Shown here piece after piece: positions 13,366-62,633 of a stretch of 64,000 nucleotides of DNA. Location: positions 4,865 to 68,864 of the forward strand of contig CALVVO010000001.1 of NCBI GenBank assembly GCA_944363885.1. The letters run 5' to 3'. How positions within the stretch are numbered: position 1 is the stretch's first letter; each line of letters begins with the position of its first letter. The stretch is from an uncultured Bacilli bacterium (GTDB taxonomy: Bacteria > Bacillota_I > Bacilli_A > RF39 > UBA660). The notes below the pieces were generated by a model that was not told where the DNA came from, made no database searches, and was given only the letters and a program-made list of their open reading frames with translations. The position numbers and the translations under genes were made by a program.

Positions 13366-14067
13366 GTGAAAAAAGTGTTAAAAAAAATTTTAGAATTTAT
13401 AAGAAATTTAAAAATATTTACAACATCATACTCAATAAATGTTTTCCCTGAACCTTTAACAAAAGAGGAAGAAGAAAAATACATTGAATTAATGATGAAA
13501 GGAGACAAAAACGCAAGAAGTGTGCTTATAGAGCATAATCTTAGATTAGTCGCACACATAGTAAAAAAATTTGAAAGTTTTAAAGAAGATACAGACGACC
13601 TAATAAGCATCGGAACAATTGGGCTAATAAAGGGAATAGATTCATATAAAGTAAATAAAGATGTGAGAATAACAACATATTCAGCTAGATGCATTGAAAA
13701 TGAGATTTTAATGTACATTAGAAGCAATAAAAAGAACCAAAATAATGTAAGTTTAGATGATTCGATTGGATTTGATAAAGAAGGAAACGAAATAACATTA
13801 TTAGATATACTAAAAGAAACAGATAATGAAGTCAATGATAAGTTATATGTAAAAGAAAATATAACATTATTAAAAAGTTACATAGATTGTCTAAGTGATA
13901 GAGAAAAAGAAGTAATAATTAATAGATATGGTTTACTAAATAGAGAAGAAAAAACACAAAAAGAAATTGCAAAAGAAATGAAAATATCTAGAAGTTATGT
14001 ATCAAGAATTGAAAAAAGGGCACTAGTAAAAATGCTAAGAGAATTTTTAAAAAATAACAACATGTAA
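13366..14067 (+). CDS. sigK: RNA polymerase sporulation sigma factor SigK (intact, with pro-sequence)
   Basis: 233 aa. Near-colinear with B. subtilis SigK (VFPEPLTKEEEEKYIELMMKGD...HNLRLVAHIVKKFE...TYSARCIENEILMYIR...ISRSYVSRIEKRAL). It has an N-terminal pro-sequence and no intervening element. GTG start at 13366 or 13375. Confidence 0.85.
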   Translation: MKKVLKKILEFIRNLKIFTTSYSINVFPEPLTKEEEEKYIELMMKGDKNARSVLIEHNLRLVAHIVKKFESFKEDTDDLISIGTIGLIKGIDSYKVNKDVRITTYSARCIENEILMYIRSNKKNQNNVSLDDSIGFDKEGNEITLLDILKETDNEVNDKLYVKENITLLKSYIDCLSDREKEVIINRYGLLNREEKTQKEIAKEMKISRSYVSRIEKRALVKMLREFLKNNNM

Positions 14068-19608: not shown

Positions 19609-20511
19609 TTAGGCTTCTAAATAAAATGATTCATCAAATAAATGCTCTTCAGGATCAAGTTTAAAAAGAGTATCAGTATCAATTAAAAAGTAAGACATTT
19701 GATATTTCGGATTATTGGTATCATTCCAAGTCAAATCCAAATGAACCCAGCTACCATTTAAATAAACCAAATTCCAAACATGTTCATCACTAGATATTTT
19801 AATATTAGGAATATCAAGTTTATCTAAGAATAAAGCCATAGCATCAGAATAGCCAGTACAAATAGCATAACCTTGAACTAAAGCACCATAAGCAGTATTA
19901 GATCTATAACTACTAGTATTATTATTAGCCATTTCTTCATCGTACTCTACATTTTTAATTATATAATTATGAATACTTCTTATTTTTTCAATATTATCAG
20001 ATAAATCATCAATATTTAATTCATACAATATATCAGAAACTCTTTTATTTAATTCTTCTATTTCATTACTAGTATAATTTTTTGAAACACTAATTGAAAC
20101 CGTTCCATTACCAGAAACTTTAGTATTTAAATTTTTAAATGAATTAAAAGGATGAACATAATCATTAACCTTACTAAGTAAGACATTATCATTAGCAATT
20201 GTTTTAACGTCATCTATGCAGTCCTCATACTCACTTGGACAATAAAAAGTAAATTCATCATATCCATCATTAAAAATGTTATAAAAAATATTTAAAATAC
20301 TTTCTTTATCAACCGGAATAAACTCGTCATCATTTTGAAATTTAACATAATCAAAATCTCTTGCATACTCATTTTTTTCTTTAACTTCAACAGTTTTTTC
20401 ATCTGACATAAAACCAGTAAAAAAATCTGTAATTTCATCTATTTTTAAATAAACTAAAAGAATTAAACTTAATAATATAATTGTAAAAACAAGATTAATT
20501 ATTTTATTCAT
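19609..20511 (-). CDS. Transglutaminase-like (papain-fold) domain protein, membrane-anchored
   Basis: 300 aa with an N-terminal TM anchor. It has a transglutaminase-like core with candidate catalytic Cys/His/Asp residues (YAICTGYSDAMALF...EHVWNLVYLNGSWVHLDLTW). Confidence 0.65.
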   Translation of the reverse strand: MNKIINLVFTIILLSLILLVYLKIDEITDFFTGFMSDEKTVEVKEKNEYARDFDYVKFQNDDEFIPVDKESILNIFYNIFNDGYDEFTFYCPSEYEDCIDDVKTIANDNVLLSKVNDYVHPFNSFKNLNTKVSGNGTVSISVSKNYTSNEIEELNKRVSDILYELNIDDLSDNIEKIRSIHNYIIKNVEYDEEMANNNTSSYRSNTAYGALVQGYAICTGYSDAMALFLDKLDIPNIKISSDEHVWNLVYLNGSWVHLDLTWNDTNNPKYQMSYFLIDTDTLFKLDPEEHLFDESFYLEA

Positions 20512-23112: not shown

Positions 23113-23466
23113 CTATTTTTGTTCTACTAATAATGAAGCACATTTTCTATAAGTCCTAGTAAGTAATCCTCTGCCAAGTAAAGTACCACCAAAATATCTA
23201 ACAACAATAATAAGTACATTATCAAGTTTTTTCTGCTCAATAACATCAAGAATAGGTTTACCTGCAGAATTACTAGGCTCTTTATCTTCATATTTTTTAA
23301 CATAATTACCGATTTTGTAAGCATATACTATATGTTTACATTTTTTATGCTCAATTTTTAGCATATTTAAAATACTATTTATTTCATCTAACGATTCAAT
23401 AAAATATAAATATCCATAAAATTTACTTTTCTTTTCTTCTACATATCTTTCATTTAACTTTTTCAT
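23113..23466 (-). CDS. IMPACT/YigZ-family N-terminal domain protein (short)
   Basis: 117 aa with IMPACT-domain motifs (KSKFYGYLYFIES, EPSNSAGKPIL, VVRYFGGTLLGRGLL). It lacks the C-terminal domain of full-length YigZ. Confidence 0.65.
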   Translation of the reverse strand: MKKLNERYVEEKKSKFYGYLYFIESLDEINSILNMLKIEHKKCKHIVYAYKIGNYVKKYEDKEPSNSAGKPILDVIEQKKLDNVLIIVVRYFGGTLLGRGLLTRTYRKCASLLVEQK

Positions 23467-23503
23467 AACATTATTTTACAATATATTTTATCAAATTTAA
23501 ATC

Positions 23504-25423
23504 TTAACTATTTTTTAATTTCATAGAAAATTCATCATCATTAATTGGAATTTTTATAATATTTGATAAAGTAGACTCAACGTCATTTACATCAATTTCT
23601 AATAAATTTGCAATAGTTTCATTGGATAGTTTCTTGCCATTTAAAATCATACTTTTTAATAAAATAACCATTGTTTCAACTGTTGAAATAGATAGATTAT
23701 TTGCTAAAGAATCAATATAAGAAGCATTTATTAATTTTTTTATTTTTTTATAATCTTCAAGTGACAAAGTTAAATTTGGTTCACCTTCATAATAATTATT
23801 TTCAGGTTTTTCTTTGTTAGACTCATCAAGTTTTCGCTTGTTTTGTAATTTTTTTTTCATTTTAGGAATTAAAGAAAGATAGAAAATAGAGTGATTTTCT
23901 TTAGACCAAGATGGATCAGTACTAGGGTGTTCTAAATCATCGCCGTAACGCAATCTGATTAATTCCTTTTCATCGTCGTTAAGTTGAAAAAGCATATTAT
24001 CAATTTCTTCTTTTGAAAAATCACTAAAATATTCATATATACTTTTTAACTTTCTACCCTTATGAACAGGTTTAGCCGCATTTTTTAGTAATCTTTTCAT
24101 TTTAGGAATTAAAGAACGATAAAAAACAGAGTAATTTTTTCTAGACCAAGATGAGTCAGTAACAGGATGTTCTAAATCATTGCCATAATGCATTCTTACT
24201 AATTCTTTCTCATCTTCATTAAGTTGTGACAACATATTATCTATTTCTTCTTTTGAAAAATCACTAAAATATTCATAAATAGTTTTCAATTTTCTATTTT
24301 TATAAATAGGTTTAGTCATATTTTTTAGTAATCTTTTCATTTTAGGAACTAATATACCATAAAATGAATAAGCGTTTTCTTTAGACCAAGATGGATCAGT
24401 AACAAGATGTTCTAAATCATCACCGTAGCGCATTCTTACTAATTCTTTCTCATCTTCATTAAGTTGTGACAACATATTATCTATTTCATCTTTCGAAAAA
24501 TCACTAAAAAGTTCATAAATAGTTTTTAATTTTCTATTTTTATAAATAGGTTTAGTCGTATTTTTTAGTAATCTTTTCATTTTTGGAACTAAGAAACGAT
24601 AAAAGATATAGCTATTTTCTCTAGTCCAAGATGGATCAGTAACAGGATGTTCTAAATCATCGCCGTAGCGCATTCTTACTAATTCTTTCTCATTTTCATT
24701 AAGTTGTGATAACATATTGTCTATTTCTTCTTTTGAAAAATCACTAAAATATTCATAAATAGGTTTTAACCTTCTTTTATTTTGAAACTCATTATTTTCT
24801 AATTGTAATTTTATTGTTTTTAAAGTTGCTGTTATAATTCTAGAAACATACGATTGAGATATTTTCATTTGAGAACTAATTTCATTTTGATTAAGTGGTT
24901 CACAATTAAAACCAAAATACAGCATAATAATTTGCTTTTCACGTTCGGGCAAATTTTCAATTACTCTTCTCACTTCGTCATATAATTCTTTTTCTTCAAT
25001 AGAAAAAACAAAATCTTCATCAGAATCCATTAATATATCCTTTAAAAACAATTCACTACCATCTTTATTTGTAGAAATAGGAGAAGTTAAACTAACATGT
25101 TCTTTATGTGTTTTATTTTTTCGTATGAACAATAAAATCTCATTATCTATACATTTCATAGCATAGGTAGAAAACTTAACTTCTCTATTTATATCAAAAG
25201 TATCCACTGCTTTTATTAAACCCATTAATCCAATTGAAACCAACTCGTCCATATCGTATGGATAAGAAGAAAATTTACCAGGAACTCTATATAATACTAA
25301 TTTAATATTATGGTTTATAATAATTTCTCTAGATTTTAAATCGCCATTTTGAAATCTAATAAAATATTCTACAATCTCTTTATCATCAAGTGGCTTTGGC
25401 AAATTATTTTCAACAAACAACAT
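23504..25423 (-). CDS. Sporulation-type (SigE/SigK-clade) sigma-70 factor fused to four tandem region-4-like repeats and a C-terminal helical domain
   Basis: 639 aa. Residues 1 to approximately 212 form a complete sigma (LPKPLDDKEIVEYFIRFQNGD, NIKLVLYRV, STYAMKCIDNEILLFIRKNK, LPEREKQIIMLYFGF...ISQSYVSRI) with no pro-sequence. Residues approximately 213-535 are four 79-81 aa repeats (IYEYFSDFSKEEIDNMLSQLNEDEKELVRMRYGDDLEHPVTDPSW...IPKMKRLLKN), each resembling region 4.1 plus a degenerate helix. The final approximately 100 aa form another helical module. Confidence 0.65.
   Translation of the reverse strand: MLFVENNLPKPLDDKEIVEYFIRFQNGDLKSREIIINHNIKLVLYRVPGKFSSYPYDMDELVSIGLMGLIKAVDTFDINREVKFSTYAMKCIDNEILLFIRKNKTHKEHVSLTSPISTNKDGSELFLKDILMDSDEDFVFSIEEKELYDEVRRVIENLPEREKQIIMLYFGFNCEPLNQNEISSQMKISQSYVSRIITATLKTIKLQLENNEFQNKRRLKPIYEYFSDFSKEEIDNMLSQLNENEKELVRMRYGDDLEHPVTDPSWTRENSYIFYRFLVPKMKRLLKNTTKPIYKNRKLKTIYELFSDFSKDEIDNMLSQLNEDEKELVRMRYGDDLEHLVTDPSWSKENAYSFYGILVPKMKRLLKNMTKPIYKNRKLKTIYEYFSDFSKEEIDNMLSQLNEDEKELVRMHYGNDLEHPVTDSSWSRKNYSVFYRSLIPKMKRLLKNAAKPVHKGRKLKSIYEYFSDFSKEEIDNMLFQLNDDEKELIRLRYGDDLEHPSTDPSWSKENHSIFYLSLIPKMKKKLQNKRKLDESNKEKPENNYYEGEPNLTLSLEDYKKIKKLINASYIDSLANNLSISTVETMVILLKSMILNGKKLSNETIANLLEIDVNDVESTLSNIIKIPINDDEFSMKLKNS
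23822..24787. repeat. Four diverged tandem DNA repeats of about 240 bp (coding, inside the sigma-fusion gene)
   Basis: Recurring blocks, for example ...TCATCTTCATTAAGTTGTGACAACATATTATCTATTTCTTCTTTTGAAAAATCACTAAAATATTCATAAATAG..., with a period of about 237-241 bp. Copies are roughly 85-90% identical and in frame. Confidence 0.8.
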
Positions 25424-25536
25424 AGATATATTCCTCCAATAAAATATCTTTTATTTTAACACTTAAACTATAATTAATCCAGTTAAAAATAGCAAAATAT
25501 TTAAAATAATATTTATTTAAAATTAATAATAAATAA

Positions 25537-35714: not shown

Positions 35715-36806
35715 ATGAAAGTTGTAGTTGGAATAAGTGGTGGAGTTGATAGTGCTGTTGCAGCATACCTACTTATAAAAGAAGGATATGATGTAGTAGG
35801 CCTTTTCATGAAGAATTGGGATAGTAATATAAACAATGATCCAGAAGGAATAACAGAAGGCATATGCCCACAAGAACAAGACTTTATTGATGCAAAAAAT
35901 GCATGTGATATATTAGGTATACCACTTTATAGAGTAGATTTCATAAAAGAATATTGGGATAACGTTTTCACATACTTCTTAAAAGAACTTGAGAAAGGTA
36001 GAACGCCTAACCCAGATATTATGTGTAATAAATATATAAAATTTGATTTATTTTTAAAAGAAGCAAAAAAACTAGGCGCAGACAAAGTAGCAACAGGCCA
36101 TTATGCAAGAATAGAAGGTAATAAACTTTTAAGAGCAGTTGATCTAAACAAAGACCAAACATACTTTTTGTCCCAAGTAAAAGTAGATAATTTTAAAGAC
36201 ATTTTATTTCCAATAGGTAATTTAACCAAACCAGAAGTCAGAAAAATTGCAAAAGAAATAGGATTAAACGTAGCAGATAAAAAAGATAGTACAGGAATAT
36301 GCTTTATCGGAGAAAGGCATTATCAACAATTCGTACAAAACTACATAAAAGGAAGAGAAGGAGACATCGTAAATGTTGAAACAAACGAAGTAATTGGCAA
36401 ACATAATGGTTTAATAAACTATACAATAGGTCAAAGAAGAAACGTTGGATTAAGCGGTGACGATAAAAGGCACTACGTATGTGGGAAAAATGTTGAAAAA
36501 AACATATTATACGTTGCATACGGAGAGGATAACAAATATCTTATGAGTGATGAAGCAGTCATAGAAGAAATGAACTATATAGGTAGTGAAAAGCCAACAT
36601 TTGCAACTTGTAAATTTAGATATAGAGCAGAAGACGTACCAATAAGAATAGAATATCTAAATGAAAAAGAAATAATAGTGAGATACGACTCTGCAAAAGC
36701 TGTTACGCCAGGCCAAGCATGCGTAATATATTTAGGAAATGAATGCATTGGTGGCGGAATTATCAAAGAAGTTAGGAAAAATGGAGAAAAGCTTTGGTAT
36801 CTATAA
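35715..36806 (+). CDS. mnmA: tRNA-specific 2-thiouridylase MnmA
   Basis: 363 aa from MKVVVGISGGVDSAV (PP-loop). Catalytic Cys motifs and a C-terminal beta-barrel. RBS AGGTGA, with ATG at 35715. Confidence 0.9.
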   Translation: MKVVVGISGGVDSAVAAYLLIKEGYDVVGLFMKNWDSNINNDPEGITEGICPQEQDFIDAKNACDILGIPLYRVDFIKEYWDNVFTYFLKELEKGRTPNPDIMCNKYIKFDLFLKEAKKLGADKVATGHYARIEGNKLLRAVDLNKDQTYFLSQVKVDNFKDILFPIGNLTKPEVRKIAKEIGLNVADKKDSTGICFIGERHYQQFVQNYIKGREGDIVNVETNEVIGKHNGLINYTIGQRRNVGLSGDDKRHYVCGKNVEKNILYVAYGEDNKYLMSDEAVIEEMNYIGSEKPTFATCKFRYRAEDVPIRIEYLNEKEIIVRYDSAKAVTPGQACVIYLGNECIGGGIIKEVRKNGEKLWYL

Positions 36807-36880
36807 AATGTAAATTGACACTTGACAGTTATATGTAAAGTGTTTTATAATGATTATAGTAAAGAGGTTAGGAGATTAAT

Positions 36881-37660
36881 ATGAGGAAATTAAGTGATTT
36901 ATTACAAGAAGCTGGTGTTTCAAAAGTTAAATTGGCTAAATATTTAGGAGTATCAAGACAAATGGTTTACAACTATTTAGAATTAAACAGCATAGAAAAT
37001 TGGCCAAGTGAAAAGAGAATTTTAATATGCAAATTATTAGGTATAAGTGAAGAAAAACCAGATGAAGGCTTAGAAAAATTAAAAGTGACTGCCGAATTAA
37101 TGGAGGATATTGAAACAAGACTGGACGCAGCAAATAGGAATTCTAATAATGCAGATATTTATTTTAATATGAACAATTTATCAAAAGACGAACACACATT
37201 AATAAATGACCTTATCTTTTTAATTAAAGAGAAATTTAGCGATGAAAAAAACAAGGACACATATTACGAATTTTTATATTTATATCATGTGTTACAATCA
37301 ATAGATAATATACCTGAAATTAAGTACATATTTGCATACTTAAGCAAAACTTTAGGTTTAACAGATCCAAACGAATATAAATTTGATGAAAATTCACAAT
37401 TTATTTTAGAAAGCATAGTATTCACTGCAATGAACTTATATAATAATGGTGGAGCAACTAAAAGCAAACTTATTGCATCTCACGACAGATTTGTGCAAGA
37501 AATCGAAAGCAAAAAAGAAGAAGCTTTAAGTAGAACTCAACAAATAAACACTATAAAATTACAGGCATTAAGAGAATTAGGATATACTTCATTAACTAGC
37601 GAAAATGCTCAAGAAGTTTTAAATAAAATAGCAGAAATTGAAACAAGAAAAGTGGGATAA
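36881..37660 (+). CDS. Helix-turn-helix domain protein (putative regulator)
   Basis: 259 aa. N-terminal HTH (VSKVKLAKYLGVSRQMVYNYLE); the rest is uncharacterised. Confidence 0.5.
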   Translation: MRKLSDLLQEAGVSKVKLAKYLGVSRQMVYNYLELNSIENWPSEKRILICKLLGISEEKPDEGLEKLKVTAELMEDIETRLDAANRNSNNADIYFNMNNLSKDEHTLINDLIFLIKEKFSDEKNKDTYYEFLYLYHVLQSIDNIPEIKYIFAYLSKTLGLTDPNEYKFDENSQFILESIVFTAMNLYNNGGATKSKLIASHDRFVQEIESKKEEALSRTQQINTIKLQALRELGYTSLTSENAQEVLNKIAEIETRKVG

Positions 37661-37720
37661 ACAAATAGCTATTTTTCTACTTTCTCAACTTCCGATAATA
37701 TATATTATGTTAAGTTATAA

Positions 37721-38470
37721 CTAAAACAATAAATGATTAATTAATATTATCACTACTCCCAGCAACATACCCAACTTAATTTGCTTACCTTCATTATATT
37801 TAATAGCTTCTGGAAACAATTCATTTATAGAAATTGTTATCATAATTCCAGCAACTATTATTAATACATAACTTATTGTAAGCATATTTATATATTGTTT
37901 CAAAAAAAGAAATGCTACTATAGCCCCTAAGGGTTCAGCTAAAGCAGAGATAAACGTGTAAAGTATGCCCCTCCCCTTTTTACCCGTAGAATAGTAGAGT
38001 GGAACAGCTATGCTAATGCCTTCAGGTATATTATGCATCATAATAGCTAAACTAAGGCTTATACCAATACTTAAATCACTATAAGAAGTCATAAAAGTTG
38101 CAATTCCCTCAGGAAAATTGTGTAACATAAGTGCAATCATATTTAATATACCCAACTTAAAGAGGTTTGAATCTTTACTCTTGTTTACCTTAATATTTCT
38201 ATCTAATATGCTAACTAATATTGCCCCTACTATGAATAAAACAACCGTTATAATTATACTTTTAATCAAGCTAAAATTGCTATTTAGTTCAATAAAAGAC
38301 GATGGTAATAAATCAATTATTGAAATAGTTATCATAACACTCAAAGAAAAACTTAAACAAAATGATATGAATTTTTCTTTATTTTTAATTTTAAAAAATA
38401 CTATACAGCCACCTATTACTGTTGAAAGTCCAGCAATAGTTGTTATTATTAATGCTATTATCTCTCTCAT
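37721..38470 (-). CDS. zupT: ZIP-family zinc/metal transporter
   Basis: 249 aa with eight TM helices and HNFPEGIATF / HNIPEGISIAVP metal-binding motifs. Confidence 0.85.
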   Translation of the reverse strand: MREIIALIITTIAGLSTVIGGCIVFFKIKNKEKFISFCLSFSLSVMITISIIDLLPSSFIELNSNFSLIKSIIITVVLFIVGAILVSILDRNIKVNKSKDSNLFKLGILNMIALMLHNFPEGIATFMTSYSDLSIGISLSLAIMMHNIPEGISIAVPLYYSTGKKGRGILYTFISALAEPLGAIVAFLFLKQYINMLTISYVLIIVAGIMITISINELFPEAIKYNEGKQIKLGMLLGVVIILINHLLF

Positions 38471-38512
38471 ATTAAATATTATTTAAAACATTTTAATTAA
38501 TTACTCCTTATC

Positions 38513-45442: not shown

Positions 45443-45690
45443 ACGTACTCCAAATCATAAAAAAGCCCAAAGATACGACTGCCGTTTAAATAAATCTCGC
45501 CGTAGACGAGGTGGTAAGCAACATAATGCCATTAGGATTCTTAGTAAACTAAGCATTCAACACAGCACATTAATTATGCTCCCAAGAAAATTAAATAGTC
45601 GGTTTATTTGTTACGACAATCATTATCTTCAGGTAATTTTATTATATCATATATTTATAAAAAATATACTTAAAGCGTAAAATCTTTACA

Positions 45691-59532: not shown

Positions 59533-61452
59533 TTATTGTCTAACATATTTATGTTGAACTAGATAGTCAATAATAAATTGCATTTTTTCTTCAGTTGAAG
59601 CACCTGGATTTGTAACTTGATAATATTCTTCATAAGCATCAGCTAATACTCCAGCCAAATCACTAGGTATTGCATAAAATTTCAAATAATAGTCAATATT
59701 TTTAACATTAGTCATAATTGTATCTAATTTACTATCCATACCATTTAATTTAGTAGTAATATTATCAATATTAGTATTTAATGTTCCTAATATATTATTA
59801 TTTTCTTCAACAGTAGTCTTAATTTCAGCAAGTGATGTAGTGAAATCTTGTGTTCTTTGATTTAAAACACTATATCTACCTCTTTCATCAGAAGCTAAAG
59901 TTGCTAAATTTGTACCAAGATCTTTGATATCTTGTCTTATTACATTTTGTCTACCAACGGCATTTGATTCATATGTTGCTAATGAAGATTTTACATCATT
60001 TATTCCATTTATAACGTCATTTGTATTTTTAGATAATGAAGTTATAGAGCTAGAAATATCAGAAAGTGATGATTCTATTCTTGAATTAACTATACTTAAA
60101 TTTCTAAATGAAACATTTACAGTTGATGTTAAATCATTTAATGAACCCTCAATTCTATTTGTTACTATACTCAAATTATTTAATGATGTCCTTGTTTGAT
60201 TAGCATGAGTAGTTAATGTATTTTTAATTCCATTTGTTACTGTACTCAAATTATTTAATGATGTCCTTGTTTGATTAGCATGAGTGGTCAATGTATTTTT
60301 AATTCCATTTGTTACTGTACTCAAATTATTTAATGATGTCTTTGTTTGACTAGCATGAGTAGTTAATGTATCTTTAATTCCATTTGTTACTGTACTCAAA
60401 TTATTTAATGATGTCTTTGTTTGATTAGCATGAGTAGTTAATGTATCTTTAATTCCATTTGTTACTATGCTTAAATTATTTAATGATGTTCTGTTTTCAA
60501 CTATAAATGAATTTAAAGAACTTTGAACATTGTCAATTTTATCACTTAAGAATAATGTATTATTTGCATTATCCTCTAATATTGTCTTTTCTGCATTATC
60601 AATATTATTATTTATTGAATTCATGCTATTAGTAATCATGTTACCTAAATGAGTTCTTGTGTTATTTAAGTCAGTGTGTATTGCATTTTGACTATTAGTA
60701 ATCATATTACCTAAGTCTGTACGCAATGCATTTTCACTATTAGTTATTACATTTGTTAAATGATTTCTTGTGTTACTTAAATCTGTATGTATTGCATTTT
60801 GACTATTTGTAATCATATTACCTAAGTCTGTACGCAATGCATTTTCACTATTAGTTATTACATTTGTTAAATAATCTCTTGTATTACTTAAATCTGTATG
60901 TATTGCATTCTGACTATTGGTAATCATATTACCTAAATGATTTCTTGTATTATCTAAGTCAGTATGTATTGCATTTTGACTATTAGTAATCATATTACCT
61001 AAATGAGTTCTTGTGTTATTTAAGTCAGTATGTATTGCATTCTGACTATTAGATAAAGCAGTTAATAATGCAGATCTTGTATTATTAATATTATTATCCA
61101 AATTAGTATAATTTGTATTTATTAGAACTGTTAAAGCATCTGTTTTTTCAGTAAGACTCTTATCTAATAAATAATATTTTGAACTAATATTAGAATTAAT
61201 ACTTGATTCTGAATCATTAATGTTTTCAATAATTTCATCTTTTGATTCAGTCACAGCTTCATTTAATTCAGTAGTTTGTTTATTATTATTTTCATCTAAG
61301 AATTCAATTTTATCAAGCACATTTGGAATTGAATTACCATTGATATCAAATAATTTTGCAAGAGACAAACCAAGTAAAGTAAATAAAGCAACTAAAATTA
61401 CAACAACTACTACAATTTGTAGTGTTTGATTTTTTTGTTTTTTATTTTTCAT
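59533..61452 (-). CDS. Membrane-anchored Asn/Thr-rich tandem-repeat protein
   Basis: 639 aa with an N-terminal TM anchor (IVVVVVILVALFTLLGLSL). It has about eight 22-aa repeats (ITNSQNAIHTDLxNTRxHLGNM) and then five 25-aa repeats (TSLNNLSTVTNGIKDTLTTHANQTK). The C-terminus is a unique approximately 140-aa domain. Confidence 0.55.
   Translation of the reverse strand: MKNKKQKNQTLQIVVVVVILVALFTLLGLSLAKLFDINGNSIPNVLDKIEFLDENNNKQTTELNEAVTESKDEIIENINDSESSINSNISSKYYLLDKSLTEKTDALTVLINTNYTNLDNNINNTRSALLTALSNSQNAIHTDLNNTRTHLGNMITNSQNAIHTDLDNTRNHLGNMITNSQNAIHTDLSNTRDYLTNVITNSENALRTDLGNMITNSQNAIHTDLSNTRNHLTNVITNSENALRTDLGNMITNSQNAIHTDLNNTRTHLGNMITNSMNSINNNIDNAEKTILEDNANNTLFLSDKIDNVQSSLNSFIVENRTSLNNLSIVTNGIKDTLTTHANQTKTSLNNLSTVTNGIKDTLTTHASQTKTSLNNLSTVTNGIKNTLTTHANQTRTSLNNLSTVTNGIKNTLTTHANQTRTSLNNLSIVTNRIEGSLNDLTSTVNVSFRNLSIVNSRIESSLSDISSSITSLSKNTNDVINGINDVKSSLATYESNAVGRQNVIRQDIKDLGTNLATLASDERGRYSVLNQRTQDFTTSLAEIKTTVEENNNILGTLNTNIDNITTKLNGMDSKLDTIMTNVKNIDYYLKFYAIPSDLAGVLADAYEEYYQVTNPGASTEEKMQFIIDYLVQHKYVRQ
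60100..61080. repeat. Two families of in-frame coding tandem repeats (approximately 66-bp and approximately 75-bp units)
   Basis: The 75-bp units recur near 60171, 60251, 60331 and 60411. The 66-bp units recur across approximately 60550-61080. Confidence 0.7.
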
Positions 61453-61472: not shown

Positions 61473-62633
61473 TTATTTAATTTTTTTATAAGAATTCTCA
61501 TAAAAAATTTTATAATCTTCTATCATATCTTGAATATCATCAACCAATTTATTATTTCTAACAATATCATAATAGTTTTCTAGCTTAGAATCATCTAATT
61601 CTAACCTTTTAACAATATGAAATGCATAATCAGTTTCAATGACATCAGATATTGAGCCAGTACCCAAACCAACAACCACACTTTCAATATTCTCTAACAA
61701 GTCTCCTTTAGCATAATAATAAGTATTATTACCTTTTTCCTGAGCTTCTTCACTATATTTGATGATTAAATCTTCAAAATCAGCGCCATTTATAGCTTCA
61801 GTTAAAATACTATTTGCCAAAGTTTCTTTTTGATTAATTATAGTATCACTTAAATCACTTCCAGTGCTAACATCTATTTTTGCTAGTACAATTTGTTGTA
61901 TTTTAAGATATTTTTCAAAATACTCTTCTTTAGCACTTTCTTTTTCTTCAGTTGTTAAATCATTCTTTTTTCCACTACTATATAATTCTTCAAAAACTTT
62001 ATCATATAACTTATTTATATAATAAAATTTATCATAAGCTGCTTCAGTTATATTGTTTTTTATAAGAAGTTTTTTAAATTCAGACTTTCCACCAACATTA
62101 CTAATAACTTCCTCTTTATTTTCTTCAAGTTCTTCATAATCCTCATCTGATAAAGAGATATTATTATCTTCTGCTATACGTTCCACTGCAGTTAATATTT
62201 TAAGTTCTTCAACAGCTTGTTGTTTAAGGTACTCACCAACAGTCATATTTAATGAAGTAATTTGTTCATCTAAAGTTGCATCAGGTATTTCATAACTTTC
62301 TTTACCAAAATAACTATACTTTAGATTGTATAATTGCATATTTAAATCCGCTTTTGTAAATTTAGTATCATCAATTGTTACAACAGTGAATCCAAGAGAT
62401 ATACTTAAATAAATTAAATAGAAGATTATAAGAATAATTAATCCACTAAGTATACCAAATATGTACTTATGAGATTTAATAAAATTAAATATTTTCCCAA
62501 AAAAACCTTTAATTTTAGATCCCACTTTTTTTGGTTCCTTTACCTCAATCACTCCTTCTTTTTTAGAATTTGTTCTAGTAGTTTTTTTAGTAGTAACTTT
62601 CTTAGATGTAGTTTTACTACCTTTCGTAGCCAT
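61473..62633 (-). CDS. Membrane-anchored PpiC/parvulin-type peptidyl-prolyl isomerase (PrsA-like)
   Basis: 386 aa with a basic N-terminal tail and TM helix. C-terminal parvulin-like segment YYYAKGDLLENIESVVVGLGTGSISDVIETDYAFHIVKRLE. Confidence 0.55.
   Translation of the reverse strand: MATKGSKTTSKKVTTKKTTRTNSKKEGVIEVKEPKKVGSKIKGFFGKIFNFIKSHKYIFGILSGLIILIIFYLIYLSISLGFTVVTIDDTKFTKADLNMQLYNLKYSYFGKESYEIPDATLDEQITSLNMTVGEYLKQQAVEELKILTAVERIAEDNNISLSDEDYEELEENKEEVISNVGGKSEFKKLLIKNNITEAAYDKFYYINKLYDKVFEELYSSGKKNDLTTEEKESAKEEYFEKYLKIQQIVLAKIDVSTGSDLSDTIINQKETLANSILTEAINGADFEDLIIKYSEEAQEKGNNTYYYAKGDLLENIESVVVGLGTGSISDVIETDYAFHIVKRLELDDSKLENYYDIVRNNKLVDDIQDMIEDYKIFYENSYKKIK

Follow-up and report, generated by a model that had tools for sequence, protein, structure and literature searches.

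Sigma factors, which rank with the most thoroughly studied proteins of bacteria, are known to be controlled by pro-sequences, by separate anti-sigma factors or by single C-terminal sensor domains, and the sigma region 4 fold is known to bind the beta flap, anti-sigma factors and activators. SigK of Clostridioides difficile has neither a cleavable pro-sequence nor a C-terminal tail; its control relies on excision of the skin element. In extracytoplasmic function (ECF) sigma factors of the ECF41/ECF42 type, and in SigG1 with its SnoaL_2 domain, a further C-terminal domain is proposed to regulate the sigma that carries it, with no separate anti-sigma gene (PMC4598750, PMC7730460). In PhyR, sigma-2-like and sigma-4-like domains were repurposed for protein binding and not for promoter recognition (PMC4598750). 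Here we describe a 639-amino-acid (aa) protein encoded on the minus strand at 23504–25423 of a 64,000-nucleotide stretch (hereafter the window) of contig CALVVO010000001.1, from the assembly GCA_944363885.1 of an uncultured Bacilli bacterium. A predicted complete sigma domain is followed in this protein by four repeated modules (A) and a different terminal module (B), and both module types appear to derive from sigma region 4. The protein carries at least one A module and a terminal B after the last A, the two features that define the A(n)-B family set out below, and we are highly confident of both its architecture and its place in this family.

The gene is a single intact open reading frame (ORF) in the ORF list, and residues 1–217 make up a complete SigK/SigE-like sigma domain with no space for a pro-sequence. 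Pfam Sigma70_r2 matched residues 44–104 (47.8 bits, cut-off 24) and Sigma70_r4 reached 85.5 bits (cut-off 24.1), with its best stretch at residues 155–205. The N-terminal 212 aa aligned end-to-end with the SigK and SigE models, beginning at SigK profile position 23, as expected from the original prediction that roughly this part is a complete SigE/SigK-like sigma. The best NCBIfam models were those of SigK (NF004471, 211.2 bits against a cut-off of 252; TIGR02846, 192.2 against 298.65) and SigE (NF006158, 177.6 against 339; TIGR02835, 158.2 against 348.6), and the score stayed below the cut-off in each case. The domain is 40% identical over 208 residues, regions 2.4 and 4.2 included, to the SigK encoded 10 kb away in the window (13366–14067, plus strand). 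That gene scores above both SigK cut-offs, which bears out its description as an intact conventional sigK, and has a 24-residue N-terminal extension that is absent from the 639-aa protein; the two are the only sigma genes in the window. The motif ISQSYVSRI is near-invariant among the SigK/E-like members of the tailed family, and its glutamine is what we take, from B. subtilis sequences, to be the SigE state, arginine being that of SigK.

A pro-sequence of the kind removed by SpoIVFB or SpoIIGA is lacking, since an in-frame TAA leaves only 9 codons upstream of the ATG, so that a SigE/SigK-type pro-sequence cannot be encoded; its absence had been correctly foreseen. The gene is flanked by uvrC and by an IMPACT N-domain gene, and not by the members of a spoIIGA-sigE-sigG cluster. 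Orthology to SigK or SigE was ruled out by the sub-cut-off scores, the missing pro-sequence and the presence of a true sigK in the window. The gene is predicted to encode a complete sigma-70-family sigma factor that is synthesised with no pro-sequence; as it scores under the cut-offs of both SigK and SigE, it is a paralogue within their clade and not an orthologue of either. The N-terminal domain of the protein would work as an ordinary sigma, with a -35 recognition helix (ISQSYVSR) that resembles the one in SigE.

The identical 639-aa protein is recorded on 8–9 contigs. The four that were examined come from four separate ENA assemblies, and the same flanking genes are present in the three whose contigs extend far enough. 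An assembly artefact was ruled out by this identity of the four-repeat form across separate assemblies; the same claim had been made from the divergence of the repeats.

The repeats were delimited by Tandem Repeats Finder as a 240-bp unit in 3.8 copies (86% matches, 23854–24775), and at the protein level there are exactly four A units of 80 aa (residues 218–537), where four of 79–81 aa had been proposed. Pairwise identity between the units is 75–89% in DNA and 69–84% in protein, with the fourth copy the most diverged, and the ratio of nonsynonymous to synonymous substitutions (dN/dS) between them is 0.26–0.50, which indicates that each copy is kept under purifying selection. The A module is defined by the motif TIYEYF...LRYGxDLxNP...FYxxLxPKMKxLL, and a profile hidden Markov model (HMM) built from 12 family members gave four matches in the protein of 118–124 bits each. 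Pfam and NCBIfam scans of a single repeat returned only partial, sub-threshold region 4 matches, Pfam matches in the tail as a whole were to partial sigma-4 only, and no dedicated family for the tail was found in these scans or among the newer precomputed Pfam labels. Using hhalign, A was aligned to the family's own region 4 with a probability of 88% (E 2.8e-6, 56 columns), with a 6-residue gap exactly at the first helix of the helix-turn-helix (HTH). In an AlphaFold2 (AF2) model of the fourth A together with B (182 aa), with a predicted local distance difference test score (pLDDT) of 86, and of 96–98 across most of A (residues 1–70), A consists of a short helix, two helices, a 14-residue loop (37–50) and a long helix, and the loop replaces HTH helix 1. 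This comparison of one repeat with sigma region 4, by profile and by structure prediction, had been put forward as a check; the repeat proved to be helical and region-4-related, and the region-4.1-like segment read in it stands. On these grounds A is predicted to be a region 4 without the first HTH helix.

The B module had been described as a final helical module of about 100 aa. It is helical, but it is no generic module, being the best region 4 homologue of the tail. The B HMM matched residues 553–625 at 65.4 bits (562–634 in the numbering of the stop-to-stop frame), and hhalign aligned B with the family's region 4 over 57 columns (probability 97.8%, E 9.7e-13). A profile of the last A plus B, built from 30 family members, matched solved SigA region 4 structures with an E-value of 1.4e-5 via its B part, and region 4.1 weakly via its A part. 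In the AF2 model B shows the complete sigma-4 helix pattern. Many of the homologues tested have a B-like sequence at the C-terminus, and in one protein such sequence alternates with A. AF2 of the whole protein gave a predicted template modelling score (pTM) of 0.25, with pLDDT below 50 in every inter-module linker, so that the modules look like independent beads on a string. We conclude from profiles and models that the tail is a series of domains that fold independently and stem from sigma region 4, with four A followed by one B. The original prediction came through each of the tests that it had itself named as able to refute it. The coordinates of all features are given in Table 1.

Table 1. 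Features of the sigma gene, its start region and the adjacent IMPACT gene; positions are those of the window.
Feature	Position	Strand	Evidence
IMPACT/YigZ N-domain-only gene, 117 aa, 37 bp downstream of sigma gene	23113..23466	-	Pfam UPF0029, 105 bits
Complete coding sequence: sigma domain, four A modules, B module	23504..25423	-	ORF list; identical protein in other assemblies
B module, residues 552–632, predicted sigma-4-like helical domain, HTH-equivalent helix acidic	23528..23770	-	B HMM, hhalign, AF2
Low-confidence linker, residues 538–551	23771..23812	-	AF2 pLDDT <50 at residues 535–549
A module 4, residues 458–537, oldest copy	23813..24052	-	Repeat HMM 158 bits; 75–78% nucleotide identity to other three
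A module 3, residues 378–457	24053..24292	-	Repeat HMM 166 bits; Pfam r4_2 positions 2–29 match residues 392–419
A module 2, residues 298–377	24293..24532	-	Repeat HMM 166 bits
A module 1, residues 218–297	24533..24772	-	Repeat HMM 170 bits
Genuine sigma region 4, residues ~138–212, recognition helix ISQSYVSRI	24788..25012	-	Pfam Sigma70_r4; aligns with window SigK ISRSYVSRI
Sigma region 2, residues ~14–104	25112..25384	-	Pfam Sigma70_r2; AF2 helices 14–103, pLDDT 83–94
Ribosome-binding site GGAGG, 9 nt 5' of ATG at 25423	25433..25437	-	Read from sequence
In-frame TAA, at most 9 codons of N-terminal extension possible	25451..25453	-	Stop-to-stop frame 23507–25450

The capacity of the two modules to read DNA was judged from the positions that do so in region 4. 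At the place of the ISQSYVSR of sigma-4, B has the consensus IeexEViEItKK, and where Thermus SigA has the DNA-contacting residues T-R-E-R-I-R-Q, B aligns with e-e-e-e-v-i-e. The mean net charge across the family is -2 for B and +1.8 for the genuine region 4. Each A unit is a charge dipole, with -6 or -7 in the first 48 aa and +6 to +10 in the last 32 aa. Because A is without HTH helix 1 and B is acidic where sigma-4 contacts the -35 element, A and B probably no longer read DNA as sigma-4 does.

Relatives of the protein were searched at several levels. A word-indexed protein search gave more than 400, the distant ones with up to 10 repeats, and near-identical relatives of 639, 559, 479 and 399 aa carry 4, 3, 2 and 1 repeats, respectively. 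An exhaustive HMM search with the A profile against 1.84 billion cluster representatives recovered 1,093 proteins at E ≤1e-3 (657 at E ≤1e-10), with up to 19 A matches per protein and a longest protein of 1,862 aa. A scan of one genome per GTDB species, using a tight A alignment, recovered 80 loci, almost all from uncultured gut metagenome-assembled genomes (MAGs) labelled Bacilli, Tenericutes, Mollicutes or Erysipelotrichaceae, which came from human, rabbit and ruminant samples; Clostridium sp. CAG:417 was also among them. The tail follows a SigK/E-like sigma in 23 loci and an RpoD-like sigma in 42, and the remaining 15 have no sigma domain (two of these are cut by contig ends). The prediction had suggested looking for the same fusion in related genomes, and it recurs there. 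Four RpoD-like members checked in NCBIfam scored 225–329 bits on RpoD models. Among the six largest proteins examined, the three with a sigma domain are RpoD-like and carry 10–15 A units, and no informative extra domain was seen in any of the six. The family is restricted to an uncultured lineage of small-genome gut Bacilli, with the tail on SigK/E-like sigmas, on RpoD-like sigmas and on its own. A full-text literature search found no paper on sigma factors with repeated region 4 modules, in line with the earlier impression of an unfamiliar architecture; it is not a unique one, though, as it recurs in about 1,100 clusters and on RpoD-like sigmas too.

The sigma-less set comprises free A-B proteins, pure A arrays and fusions of A with a winged helix and a metallophosphoesterase. 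In five loci (L011, L014, L015, L024 and L047, e.g. L047:5801–7081), a protein that lacks a sigma domain combines one A with a winged-helix-like segment and a calcineurin-like metallophosphoesterase. That A is also fused to non-sigma proteins suggests a portable adaptor rather than a dedicated auto-inhibitor. Paralogues often stand in tandem, as in the clusters of three and four A/B-type genes at L086:8001–13824 (on a 1.37-Mb contig) and L075:2601–5958. Excluding paralogues, no neighbour cluster occurs at more than 7 of the 80 loci; as no conserved partner gene lies beside the family members, the tail may be self-contained. No dnaG was present among nine upstream neighbours checked at seven RpoD-like loci. 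In four loci, RpoD-like A/B genes adjoin a gene for a 316-aa protein (L028:1244–2194, L029:3476–4423, L034:6678–7631 and L053:6681–7634), whose match to the alpha C-terminal domain of RNA polymerase is weak and below threshold. In 7 of the 80 loci (L013, L014, L015, L019, L023, L024 and L031), with SigK/E-like, RpoD-like and A-phosphoesterase genes among them, a tyrosine recombinase of ~365 aa (Phage_integrase plus SAM-like domain) lies directly upstream on the same strand, at ~150–350 bp, which could mean mobile islands or recombinase-driven variation.

An origin from mobile elements or phages was unsupported. Searched by tblastn, neither 50,697 phage records nor 72,556 plasmids gave a match to the tail; no relatives were found in IMG/VR viral contigs, and PHROGs matches were limited to the sigma core of the 639-aa protein. 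A defence system was equally unsupported, as PADLOC matched sigma region 2 alone. The model concerned, MzaA, aligned only with the region 2 part (PADLOC, 42.6 bits; NCBIfam, 76.9 bits, cut-off 800) and not over its full length.

Strain-level variation was assessed in the 15 closest relatives, 14 of which could be scored for the sigma domain. This domain is 94–100% identical in 12 of the 14 and 86% and 92% identical in the other two. The last A is 71–89% identical among the 15, B falls into identity classes of ~97%, ~80% and ~54%, and the repeat number ranges from 1 to 4. In-register identical runs of 27–58 nt between repeats make unequal recombination plausible, and A copy number would change by this route. 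Some of the short-repeat forms may be collapsed assemblies, which cannot explain the B alleles. The orthologue in the uncultured Bacilli MAG BRZ_BP__bin85, which is the closest GTDB genome, is split over two contig ends inside the repeats (L005:5323–6303 and L006:1–804); since it is broken there in a short-read MAG, repeat counts from such MAGs are unreliable.

The reading we favour is that of a functional sigma whose multivalent tail is blind to DNA and serves for protein docking or regulation, and we give it slightly less than an even chance. The A and B modules would keep the protein-binding role of the sigma-4 fold and form a multivalent docking or tethering tail for RNA polymerase (e.g. 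at the beta flap) or for a sigma-4-binding partner, and the tail would thereby modulate how the sigma engages with the core enzyme or with regulators. Two points weigh against it: the strongly basic C-terminal helix and linker of A (+6 to +10) could bind nucleic acid non-specifically, and the fast divergence of B between strains (to 54% identity) could stem from relaxed constraint and not from function. The same basic segment, with which every A unit ends, the descent of the modules from a DNA-binding domain and a genome GC content of ~25% would suit an extended DNA reader, in which A and B contact DNA upstream of -35, as a multivalent -35/UP-like binder or a non-specific AT-rich tether, and the number of A units sets the reach. 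We consider this unlikely, given that A has lost the first HTH helix, that B is acidic or hydrophobic at the sigma-4 DNA-contact positions with a negative net charge, and that the first 48 residues of each A unit carry -6 or -7; the multivalent -35 binder entertained in the original prediction is disfavoured for the first two of these reasons. The tail might also act on its own sigma, by folding onto sigma-2/sigma-4 or by vying for the beta flap with the genuine region 4. Such an in-cis anti-sigma has a precedent in the regulatory C-terminal extensions of ECF sigmas (PMC4598750, PMC7730460) and would fit the absent pro-sequence and the lack of a conserved anti-sigma-like neighbour gene; we regard it as unlikely too, because AF2 shows no confident contact between tail and sigma domain (pTM 0.25), the repeat number varies freely between strains, and A/B on sigma-less proteins and in arrays of up to 19 units would be left unexplained. 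On this view the sigma would stay inactive until a signal or a protease releases it, in replacement of the pro-sequence or of a separate anti-sigma.

The modules might instead be pseudo-region-4 decoys that absorb inhibitors or appropriators targeting region 4 (e.g. phage anti-sigma proteins of the AsiA or G1-ORF67 type) and shield the genuine one, with an arms race driving variation. Between close strains the sigma domain is 94–100% identical, against 54–97% for B and a repeat number of 1–4, and free-standing A-B proteins exist; a decoy domain resembling sigma is known from PhyR (PMC4598750), and the complex of Staphylococcus aureus sigA region 4 with phage G1 ORF67 is among the weak structural matches. 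Set against this are the lack of any known inhibitor in this lineage, of a PADLOC match to the tail and of relatives found in phages, plasmids or viral contigs, as well as a dN/dS between repeats below 1, and we hold a decoy array to be improbable. That the repeats are mis-assembled, or the tail a non-functional remnant, would agree with short-read assemblies that break at this gene, as in the closest GTDB genome (L005/L006), and fewer-repeat variants could partly be collapsed assemblies; this has a very small probability in view of the identical four-repeat protein in four or more independent assemblies, an intact reading frame, repeats that differ by 11–25% in DNA under purifying selection, and a module common to 1,093 clusters. 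A bolder reading, put forward here as a minor possibility, sees in the A(n)-B tail a kind of sigma control not recognised before. A fast-evolving array of DNA-blind pseudo-region-4 domains, variable in copy number and joined to RpoD-like and alternative sigmas alike throughout a lineage of gut Bacilli, would compete multivalently or serve as a decoy at the sigma-4 hub (beta flap, anti-sigma proteins or phage appropriators). The allele replacement between strains would then reflect an arms race.

A region 4 duplicated up to 19 times behind a working sigma, in copies that are without the DNA-reading residues in the four solved-profile and model comparisons made, fits none of the known schemes of sigma regulation, and the family is confined to gut bacteria that are uncultured, have reduced genomes and are relatives of Mollicutes and Erysipelotrichales. 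Should the tail dock on RNA polymerase or on regulators that bind sigma-4, it would provide sigma competition or protection at a new level built into the protein itself, and offer a compact, testable model of how domain duplication yields regulatory decoys. A and B merit family models of their own, which would end the plain annotation as "sigma-70 family".

The IMPACT/YigZ gene next to the sigma gene had been called truncated, and it does consist of the UPF0029 domain alone; TIGR00257 covers it at profile positions 12–128 of 205 only. This N-domain-only form and the sigma-IMPACT pair are kept in three assemblies with long enough contigs. No terminator-like site was seen between the two genes, and from the sequence the IMPACT gene is probably co-transcribed with the sigma gene. 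The gene order is rpsT-gpr-spoIIP, presumably as on the Bacillus subtilis map, then the inverted IMPACT-sigma pair, then uvrC and holA; that the sigma gene lies where lepA would be on that map carries no functional weight. The pair (23113–25423) is among very few minus-strand units in a 37-kb plus-strand block, which places it head-on to the inferred direction of replication. An invertible segment was unsupported, since the flanks of the pair hold no convincing inverted repeats and only AT-rich matches of 72–87%. The orders RFN20, RF39 and ML615J-28 have small genomes and partial sets of sporulation genes, with which gpr, spoIIP, yqfD and sigK of the window are in keeping (PMC10868615).

Elsewhere in the window, the GC skew changes sign at ~36000–38500, and genes lie mostly on the plus strand up to 37.7 kb and mostly on the minus strand beyond it, with the two blocks converging; this part of the window resembles a terminus of replication. 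The only Rfam match in the window is a full-length one to 6S/SsrS RNA at 45460–45638 (minus strand; 47.4 bits, Rfam gathering threshold 46.4). Two minus-strand ORFs of 639 and 386 aa (59533–61452 and 61473–62633) have no NCBIfam match at E ≤1e-10; the first agrees with the sigma gene in length by coincidence and is not lepA. A 300-aa transglutaminase-core protein (19609–20511, minus strand) partially matches the model of the Mycoplasma 'MAG6410 family' lipoprotein, which fits a Mollicutes-related lineage.

Compared with known systems, the protein is closest to SigK and SigE of Bacillus and Clostridia, with which it shares an end-to-end model alignment and, for the SigK of the window, 40% identity. 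It differs from them in its sub-cut-off scores, its lack of a pro-sequence, its 420-aa A4-B tail and a position that is not beside spoIIGA or sigG, and many members of its family come from MAGs labelled Tenericutes or Mollicutes. C. difficile SigK is likewise a sigma of the SigK clade made without a pro-sequence, but it has no tail, and the present window already holds a conventional pro-SigK. With PhyR the family would have in common a sigma-derived domain put to a use other than promoter reading, although PhyR is a separate alphaproteobacterial protein in which a receiver domain goes with a single sigma-like unit, neither repeated nor fused to an active sigma. The ECF41/ECF42-type sigmas and SigG1 also combine a complete sigma with an extra C-terminal domain. 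They belong to group 4 and carry one extension that has no relation to sigma domains, SnoaL-like or TPR-like in ECF41/42, whereas the core of the 639-aa protein is SigK/E-like, and its family joins a group-3-like or RpoD-like sigma to tandem copies derived from sigma region 4.

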